DNA of 64,000 nucleotides from Escherichia coli (lineage in GTDB: Bacteria; Pseudomonadota; Gammaproteobacteria; Enterobacterales; Enterobacteriaceae): assembly GCF_009931435.1 (NCBI RefSeq), contig NZ_CP043414.1; one strand, given 5' to 3'. Under the pieces are notes generated by a model that worked only from the letters and a program-made list of their open reading frames with translations, ran no database searches and was not told the DNA's origin. This document shows positions 45,048-45,464 of this stretch, in pieces; position 1 is the first letter of the stretch; each line of letters opens with the position of its first letter. The position numbers and the translations under genes are program-made.

Positions 45048-45464
45048 GTAAATGAGTTAAAGAGACTGAACCCGCTCACAGAGCTTTGCTTCGTTTTATA
45101 CGTGCTACAGCACCAAACTCATGGCGTCGGTCTCGGCGTTGCAAGGCTATCAGAACTTGAAATTATGATCGATATAAAAGATCGATAATTTGTTATTGAT
45201 AGATAATAACGATTGAAAGCGCGATATCGATCGGTGCTTAATTGTTATTATCGATCGAATATCTATTTATGATAGTTGTAAGCTATCGTGCGGTCGTTTT
45301 TGATCGTTTTAAACGATATGACGAGACGCTAAAAGAATTGAATCCTATCAATTGGTTAAGCGGTGGTTTTGCCATGTGATATCAGCCGGATCCCGCAACA
45401 ACTCTAGCCCTGACCGGATTAGGTCAAAAATTTAGGCACTTTGATTATCAGGATGGATAAGCAG

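Follow-up and report, generated by a model that had tools for sequence, protein, structure and literature searches.

A GATC cluster between divergent genes

The DNA analyzed here is a 64,000-nucleotide stretch of the Escherichia coli contig NZ_CP043414.1 (RefSeq assembly GCF_009931435.1), referred to below as the window. Our subject is a 418-bp intergenic gap in it that separates a leftward gene for a DUF4755 membrane protein from a rightward gene for a lipoprotein of the SEN1982 family (Table 1). A preliminary description of this DNA had correctly called these divergent lipoprotein and membrane-protein genes, and had pointed to a cluster of five GATC sites between them as a possible Dam- or SeqA-regulated region; it mentioned neither OxyR nor any half-sites. 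We confirmed the five sites, which fall within a conserved module of OxyR half-sites. Its sequence features suggest that this module is a new and widespread switch, based on methylation, that turns envelope lipoprotein genes of mobile islands ON and OFF.

Four of the GATC positions first given were within 2 bp of the actual ones, while the first (45177) was off by 10 bp. The accompanying expectation of roughly 0.5 sites was fair, as the window contains 202 GATC, or ~0.44 per 139 bp. The exact string ATCGATCGA occurs once and ATCGATCG twice, and the palindrome ATCGAT contains four of the five GATC (twice as GATCGAT and twice as ATCGATC). The cluster is the tightest group of five GATC in the window, and one at least as tight arose in 15% of trials in which 202 sites were placed at random in 64 kb. 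When the AT-rich 161 bp around the cluster (30% GC) were shuffled 5000 times with dinucleotides preserved, the mean was 1.34 GATC, and five or more were reached at p = 0.0034. GATC density by itself is weak evidence and only suggestive; the significance of the cluster comes from its context. There is a further GATC at 45389, but this sixth site lacks conservation, and E2348/69 reads GACC in its place.

Table 1. Features of the putative switch module and of its surroundings (positions are those of the window; half-site scores are matches to the 10-nt OxyR consensus).
Feature	Position	Strand	Description
Switch module (putative)	45163..45359	+	~197 bp conserved, upstream of lipoprotein operons in different mobile elements
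GATC1	45167..45170		Left edge of HA; kept in 21/22 distinct copies, absent in W21 and Hafnia
GATC2	45180..45183		Right edge of HA; 22/22 copies
GATC3	45229..45232		In HC; 22/22 copies
GATC4	45253..45256		Right arm of HD; 22/22 copies
GATC5	45302..45305		Left edge of HF, adjoins predicted -35; 22/22 copies
HA	45168..45182		ATCGATATAAAAGAT, 7/10; A site of triplet 1; carries GATC1 and GATC2
HB	45199..45213		ATAGATAATAACGAT, 9/10; central B site of triplet 1; without GATC
HC	45230..45244		ATCGGTGCTTAATTG, 5/10, predicted weak half-site; C site of triplet 1; carries GATC3
HD	45241..45255		ATTGTTATTATCGAT, 8/10; A site of triplet 2; carries GATC4
HE	45272..45286		ATAGTTGTAAGCTAT, 10/10; central B site of triplet 2; without GATC
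HF	45303..45317		ATCGTTTTAAACGAT, 8/10; C site of triplet 2, closest to promoter; carries GATC5
HG (possible)	45334..45348		AGAATTGAATCCTAT, 7/10; 31 bp past HF; without GATC
P2 (predicted promoter)	45306..45338	+	Position kept in 18/24 copies, 5 more at 45333
P1 (alternative -10-like TATGAT)	45268..45273	+	Just before HE; at 45267 or 45268 in 18/24 copies
DUF4755 membrane-protein gene	44559..45047	-	Divergent; module neighbor in ROD21-type lineage only, not part of the module
SEN1982-family lipoprotein gene	45465..45995	+	Presumed regulated; 176 amino acids, lipobox LAGC
ROD21-like (EARL) excisable island	29605-57381		Between tRNA-Ile(CAU) and ssrA
Integrase gene	55625-56854	-
ssrA	57019-57381	-

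Two tandem triplets of OxyR half-sites

Half-sites were scored against the 10-nt OxyR consensus ATAGnTnnnAnCTAT, the classical 37-bp site being ATAGnTnnnAnCTAT-N7-ATAGnTnnnAnCTAT with a maximum of 20, and the window was scanned a second time with a 16-nt spacer, which is the reduced-OxyR spacing of gtr and opvAB (PMC2909390, PMC4856963). With the classical consensus, the three best matches of the whole window (17, 15, and 14 of 20) all lie in the module region; the experimentally validated agn43 site of strain K-12 scores 14/20 on the same scale. With the 16-nt spacer, the five highest pair scores of the window (18, 18, 16, 15, and 14) form a single chain, with starts at 45168, 45199, 45241, 45272, and 45303. 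The local shuffles never gave a pair score above 16, and never four half-sites scoring 8 or more.

The chain resolves into two tandem triplets, HA-HB-HC and HD-HE-HF, each consisting of a near-perfect central half-site and weaker, GATC-bearing outer ones 31 bp to either side. In triplet 1, the pair HA+HB scores 16/20 (the third best in the window) and HB+HC 14/20; HC has a good left arm only (ATCGGT), although the GATCGGT that includes it is nearly invariant. In triplet 2, HD+HE (18/20, joint best in the window) and HE+HF (18/20) share HE, the only half-site of the window to score 10/10. Four base pairs are common to HC and HD. HD aligns to HA with AATT replacing the first GATC, and its TTAATTG is invariant, so that positions 45166-45236 and 45239-45318 can be read as two copies of one plan: [GATC or AATT]-N9-GATCGA, N13, ATAGnTnnnAnC(G/T)AT, N15, GATCG(G/T)T. 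Each of the five GATC overlaps an arm of a half-site (HA twice, HC, HD, and HF once each). The sequence thus has both the half-sites and the GATC overlaps that mark the Dam/OxyR switch class. A 22-bp register, corresponding to oxidized OxyR, was considered first and rejected, as it offers no account of the invariant blocks TTAATTG and AAACGAT, whereas the 31-bp register explains both.

A seventh half-site, HG, is possible: HF+HG scores 15/20 as a pair, and Hafnia has an 8/10 half-site (ATAATTCAATTCTAT) at the same offset. HG lies within a perfect inverted repeat, AATTGA-N6-TCAATT (45336-45353), which is nearly invariant across genera and overlaps the predicted -10 element and start site. OxyR bound at HG may explain part of this repeat, though not clearly, and the repeat might instead be an operator for a second factor.

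Spread and conservation of the module

A distant blastn search with the intergenic region found the module in 680 of 5426 complete E. coli genomes, in up to three places per genome. In 134 E. coli records only the part 45163-45359 of the region is matched, at 60-80% identity, and there the module lies in other islands and without the divergent DUF4755 gene. It is also present in one Yersinia pseudotuberculosis record, on an IncFIB/HI1B conjugative plasmid of Klebsiella pneumoniae, and upstream of SEN1982 in the ROD21 island of Salmonella Enteritidis. When one genome per species was scanned with an anchor drawn from the conserved block at the 3' end (45311-45347), 15 loci were recovered, distributed over 12 genera; overall, the module occurs in at least 12 further genera. 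Strains that carry it include E. coli E2348/69 and ATCC 25922 and S. Enteritidis P125109, CFSAN000111, and CFSAN000158. Genomes with three module copies (e.g., NZ_CP110511.1, NZ_AP045796.1, and NZ_CM177971.1) imply several independently switching lipoprotein operons per cell, if each copy acts as a switch.

Conservation was measured on 22 distinct copies from E. coli and other genera, including Pluralibacter, Cedecea, Brenneria, Mangrovibacter, Yersinia, Pectobacterium, Citrobacter, Samsonia, Prodigiosinella, Intestinirhabdus, Symbiopectobacterium, and Klebsiella. These are only ~75% identical overall, yet the GATC sites and the spacing are kept. GATC2 to GATC5 are 100% invariant and GATC1 is 95% so, and the distance from GATC1 to GATC2 is 13 bp in 22/22 copies, the same spacing as in the OxyR(A) site of gtr. 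At every GATC-bearing arm the base that creates the GATC is off the OxyR consensus and is nevertheless invariant (45170 C, 45180 G, 45232 C, 45253 G, and 45305 C). The central half-sites are conserved where the OxyR consensus specifies a base: consensus positions carry 1.92 bits vs. 0.47 bits at free positions in HE, and 1.74 vs. 0.79 bits in HB. The A-to-B spacing is 31 bp in all copies, and the B-to-C spacing is 31-32 bp, changing jointly in both triplets, while the offset between the triplets drifts over 42-44 bp; fixed spacing within triplets and a drifting offset between them are expected if OxyR tetramers bind within triplets. Taken with the placement of the GATCs in OxyR half-sites laid out like those of gtr, opvAB, and agn43, and unchanged across genera, the earlier proposal of a Dam-regulated, phase-variable promoter appears well supported.

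Positions that the consensus leaves free in HB and HE, and those in the spacers (e.g., 45203, 45206, 45276-45282, and 45220-45224), are highly variable, even between otherwise close copies. They resemble the "structured promoter variability" of opvAB (PMC12902445) and might tune switching rates.

Comparison with known switches

The closest likeness is to the gtr switch of P22 and Salmonella (PMC2909390), whose half-sites, read from NC_002371, score 8-10-8 at spacings of 32 and 32 bp, each outer site having two GATC 13 bp apart and the middle site none. Triplet 2 here likewise scores 8-10-8, at spacings of 31 and 31 bp, and HA has the double GATC 13 bp apart; both systems have a GATC-free center, GATC-bearing outer sites, and a last GATC abutting the (here predicted) -35 element, and both reside on mobile DNA with an envelope function. 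The A-B-C architecture of the gtr family, with sites ~32 bp apart, is found in both triplets (8-10-8 in triplet 2 and 7-9-5 in triplet 1). The differences are that the triplet occurs here twice in tandem, offset by ~73 bp, and that the C site of triplet 1 extends into the A site of triplet 2; that there are five GATC rather than four, with the double GATC in HA only and one each in HD, HC, and HF; that sites are 31-32 bp apart rather than 32; and that the cargo consists of lipoproteins instead of glycosyltransferases. Descent from gtr finds no support in the sequence searches: when the module was compared by blastn with 50,697 phage records, P22 among them, there was no gtr match, no similarity to P22, and no relevant phage relative.

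The opvAB locus of Salmonella enterica (PMC4856963) also has at least four half-sites on one helix face, in pairs ~32 bp apart with ~41-44 bp between pairs, alternating strong and weak sites with GATCs in the weak ones, and it too was acquired horizontally and encodes envelope proteins. In opvAB, however, the strong site is upstream in each pair and two GATCs lie outside half-sites, whereas the module has its strong site in the middle of a triplet, every GATC is on a half-site arm, and the inter-pair distance is 42-44 bp and not conserved. Its architecture proper (32, 41, and 32 bp, with perfect sites A and C) differs from the one found here (31, 42-44, and 31 bp, with the strong site second in each pair and HF following). 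The agn43 (flu) switch of E. coli shares GATCs in the ATCGAT arms of an OxyR site, and very similar local strings (GATCAATATCTATTTTATCGATCG in agn43 vs. GATCGAATATCTATTTATGATAG here), but has one OxyR site, three GATC downstream of the start, OxyR as repressor only, and no alternative positions. Switches of the pap type, which depend on Lrp and Dam, are alike in being Dam-dependent and in the alternative occupation of two GATC-containing regions. Here, in contrast, there is no 102-bp GATC pair, no match to the Lrp consensus with up to 3 mismatches in 45100-45400, and no papI- or papB-like gene nearby. A Fur/Dam switch was also considered and rejected, as the Fur box match is at background, and scans for Lrp, DnaA, and MobQ nic sites likewise gave background.

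A 2026 review treats only agn43 and gtr as OxyR/Dam switches (PMC13076061), and opvAB is described in its own papers (PMC4856963). We found no description of the present switch in the literature on SEN1982 and ROD21, OxyR/Dam switches, unmethylated GATC in islands, and Enteritidis methylomes; the methylome papers on ST131, O145, and Salmonella serovars contain no site-level information on this locus. As far as can be told, the regulators and the logic are known, while the locus family, its breadth, the lipoprotein cargo, and the doubled-triplet layout with five GATC are new. If our reading is true, this would be a fourth OxyR/Dam switch family, and would broaden the picture considerably, with a range that covers about one-eighth of complete E. 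coli genomes, ROD21, a Klebsiella conjugative plasmid, and plant- and insect-associated Enterobacterales.

A proposed OxyR/Dam switch

We consider it likely that OxyR and Dam compete at the module and thereby set heritable ON and OFF states of the rightward lipoprotein gene or operon. In the proposed mechanism, the strong, GATC-free central half-site of a triplet would be common to two alternative positions of an OxyR tetramer, A+B or B+C, 31-32 bp apart. OxyR at one position would shield the GATCs of that position from Dam, while those of the empty position would become methylated, which in turn would block OxyR there. Each methylation pattern would reproduce itself after replication, so that the state is inherited. 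By analogy to gtr, the ON state may have OxyR on HD+HE and probably also on HA+HB, with GATC1, GATC2, and GATC4 unmethylated and GATC3 and GATC5 methylated. The OFF state may have OxyR on HE+HF together with HB+HC, so that HF covers the -35 element, with GATC3 and GATC5 unmethylated and GATC1, GATC2, and GATC4 methylated. The 4-bp overlap of HC and HD may couple the two triplets sterically, as their geometry suggests. Surface and envelope functions are typical targets of Dam/OxyR switches (PMC2909390, PMC4856963), and we count the lipoprotein cargo in support of such a switch here.

The first candidate for the promoter that this mechanism would act on is P2. Its -35 element lies directly after GATC5 and reads GTTTTA in the window; most relatives have GTTACA or GATACA. 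Its -10 element is TAAAAG or AAGAAT (45330-45338) in the window and AAAAAT or AATAAT in relatives. From these elements we infer a start site at ~45342-45348. In gtr, transcription starts 45 bp past the start of the C half-site, and the same distance here gives 45348. By this analogy, HF would lie on the -35 element, HE near -67, and HD near -98, close to the gtr C, B, and A sites. The module ends ~105 bp before the start codon of the lipoprotein gene. The alternative -10-like element P1, which would put the start site at ~45280, overlaps the extended OxyR motif TGATAG. A leftward promoter proposed by a promoter scanner (-35 at 45230-45225 and -10 at 45208-45203) was rejected, since it uses variable HB positions and is not conserved, and a tiny open reading frame from the ATG at 45318 (ATGAC...TGA, 4-7 codons) was judged to be due to chance. 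An Rfam search of 44800-45700 found no RNA family.

Several observations weigh against this proposal. HC is poor (5/10) and HA reaches just 7/10 in the window, and the spacing is 31 bp here vs. 32 bp in gtr and opvAB. P2 is only predicted and its hexamers are weak; if P1 is used, HE and HF would be downstream of the start, as in agn43, which would change the OxyR position that represses. Part of HF and HG, including the right arm of HF, is inside the anchor that collected the 15 loci, so that their invariance is partly built in. The copies obtained without the anchor (L021, the S. Enteritidis copy L026, the Hafnia copy L028, and the E. coli BLAST matches) keep HF and HG, and the anchor sequence of L021, L026, and L028 differs. 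Finally, the Salmonella (P0011) and Serratia (P0034) homologs of the lipoprotein, at loci L027 and L029, have an unrelated upstream region without GATC; such homologs indicate that switch and cargo are separable, and that the switch is not required for the gene.

The serious alternatives that remain are plain OxyR regulation and a different DNA-binding protein, which together retain a small but appreciable share of the probability. An ordinary OxyR-regulated promoter, either redox-responsive or repressed, would carry its GATCs as a by-product of ATCGAT arms and would have no heritable states. ATCGAT does fit both OxyR arm types at four of five specified positions, and a GATC could arise from an arm and one flanking base. 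Yet the flanking G or C that completes each GATC is outside or off the OxyR consensus and still invariant in 22/22 copies, whereas consensus-neutral positions vary freely. Moreover, as in gtr, only the outer, alternative half-sites bear GATCs, and the central ones that both positions share have none. The half-sites are also spaced as for reduced OxyR, a spacing on which the known switches rely irrespective of oxidation (PMC2909390, PMC4856963). We regard plain OxyR regulation as unlikely. A different protein, Dam-sensitive or not, may instead read the repeated ATAG/ATCGAT elements, e.g., another LysR-type regulator, or the RepL-like winged helix-turn-helix protein or H-NS paralog encoded by the island. 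LysR-type regulators share T-N11-A cores, islands encode regulators of their own, and the conserved inverted repeat at 45336-45353 is not explained by OxyR. The OxyR-specific ATAGnTnnnAnCTAT nevertheless fits the conserved positions; there is a 10/10 half-site at this locus, and relatives have further ones. The module also resides in islands and plasmids that differ in their regulators, in at least 12 genera, and a chromosomal OxyR is present in all of these. A different reader of the module thus seems quite improbable.

Action through SeqA or replication, which the preliminary description had also offered, appears very improbable, be it at an origin-like or sequestration site or at an origin of transfer (oriT). 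In its favor, SeqA could bind a 139-bp stretch with several hemimethylated GATC, it has an ancillary role at opvAB (PMC4856963), and the island carries RepL-like and MobQ genes. However, origin-like features are lacking, with no DnaA box (up to one mismatch) in 45000-45500 and 63 such matches elsewhere in the window; no MobQ nic-like sequence is found at the module, and a better candidate hairpin lies near 49095; and the module is always 5' of a lipoprotein operon, not beside rep or mob genes. The possibility that GATC sites came together by chance in AT-rich intergenic DNA, which the random placements would allow and the local shuffles speak against, is effectively refuted by conservation, as the sites are invariant and at fixed spacing in copies from many genera, and we give it hardly any weight.

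Beyond competition between OxyR and Dam, we tentatively suggest, as a possibility that we think rather doubtful, that the module is a portable phase-variation cassette with coupled triplets. The HC/HD clash would exclude B+C binding in triplet 1 together with A+B binding in triplet 2, so that two tetramers shift together, giving a more cooperative, longer-lived, or multi-state memory than in the described single-tetramer switches. Its spread among islands and plasmids of the Enterobacterales would make envelope lipoproteins bistable, including SEN1982, a colonization factor of S. Enteritidis, perhaps with a role in exclusion or defense. The doubled triplet provides a naturally occurring test of how switching rates depend on the number of OxyR sites and on their overlap.

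If the switch operates, SEN1982 would be phase-variable, which would affect the reading of ROD21 expression data, transposon screens, and virulence assays. Deletion of another ROD21 gene, SEN1990, was reported to change oafB expression in a study whose reference list includes the gtr Dam/OxyR work of Broadbent et al. (2010) (PMC10655114). If oafB phase-varies, the culture difference attributed to SEN1990 might be ON/OFF drift, and not regulation by SEN1990.

Cargo genes

Envelope lipoprotein genes lie downstream of the module, on the same strand, at every module locus examined. The SEN1982-family lipoprotein occurs alone, preceded by a 192-amino-acid lipoprotein, or followed by either a 91-amino-acid zinc-ribbon membrane protein or a ~220-amino-acid membrane protein; in strain W21 the operon consists of a 95-amino-acid lipoprotein and the 91-amino-acid protein. 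The DUF4755 gene, on the other hand, is absent beside the module at loci L003, L004, L005, L021, L022, and L028, and elsewhere the module accompanies the rightward lipoprotein operon without it; the earlier suggestion that both flanking genes are controlled is not supported. SEN1982 mutants are reported to colonize mouse organs poorly (PMC10655114, PMC6968874).

The cargo lipoprotein has no significant family in NCBIfam, PHROGs, or PADLOC, where the matches are weak only (the N-terminus of a type VI secretion system immunity lipoprotein and, for a 188-amino-acid partner, "Sie-like" at E = 0.003). Pfam recognizes only its lipid-attachment site, a sequence search of the PDB gave no match, and an AlphaFold2 model from a 30-sequence alignment has a predicted local distance difference test (pLDDT) score of 47. 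The 91-amino-acid protein has an N-terminal CPxC...CxxC zinc-ribbon motif, two predicted membrane helices, and no family assignment; it accompanies the lipoprotein at L003-L006, L009, L012, L017, L022, L027, and L028, and is missing in the window.

The island and minor observations

The core genes around the island are those of E. coli. Within it are genes for an integrase, a MobQ relaxase, a TraD-like protein, a type IV pilin, PilV, and a RepL-like protein, besides the SEN1982 and DUF4755 genes. The gene order matches the loci of E2348/69 and of S. Enteritidis ROD21, which places it among the ROD21-like (EARL) islands, and in both the intergenic region is bordered by this pair of genes, as in the window (the lipoprotein being SEN1982 in S. 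Enteritidis). Described ROD21 relatives sit at Asn-tRNA genes. The counterpart in E2348/69 lies between yeeN and an integrase, while the island here adjoins ssrA and not an Asn-tRNA gene. Among the complete E. coli genomes in our collection, none covers at least 80% of the island.

A GC-rich hairpin, TTCCCGCCGTAAGGCGGGATAGC, in the gap between the MobQ relaxase and TraD-like genes (~49095-49120) could be an oriT or a terminator. A 1553-amino-acid open reading frame at 32735-37396 (+) corresponds to ypjA, the AIDA-repeat autotransporter gene of E. coli N96. Past ypjA, the N96 sequence departs from that of the window and contains a P2 prophage. Within ypjA, GATC occurs at 36404, 36428, and 36452, exactly 24 bp apart, presumably in coding repeats. 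The tightest GATC triple of the window, with three sites in 19 bp, is at 60298-60316.

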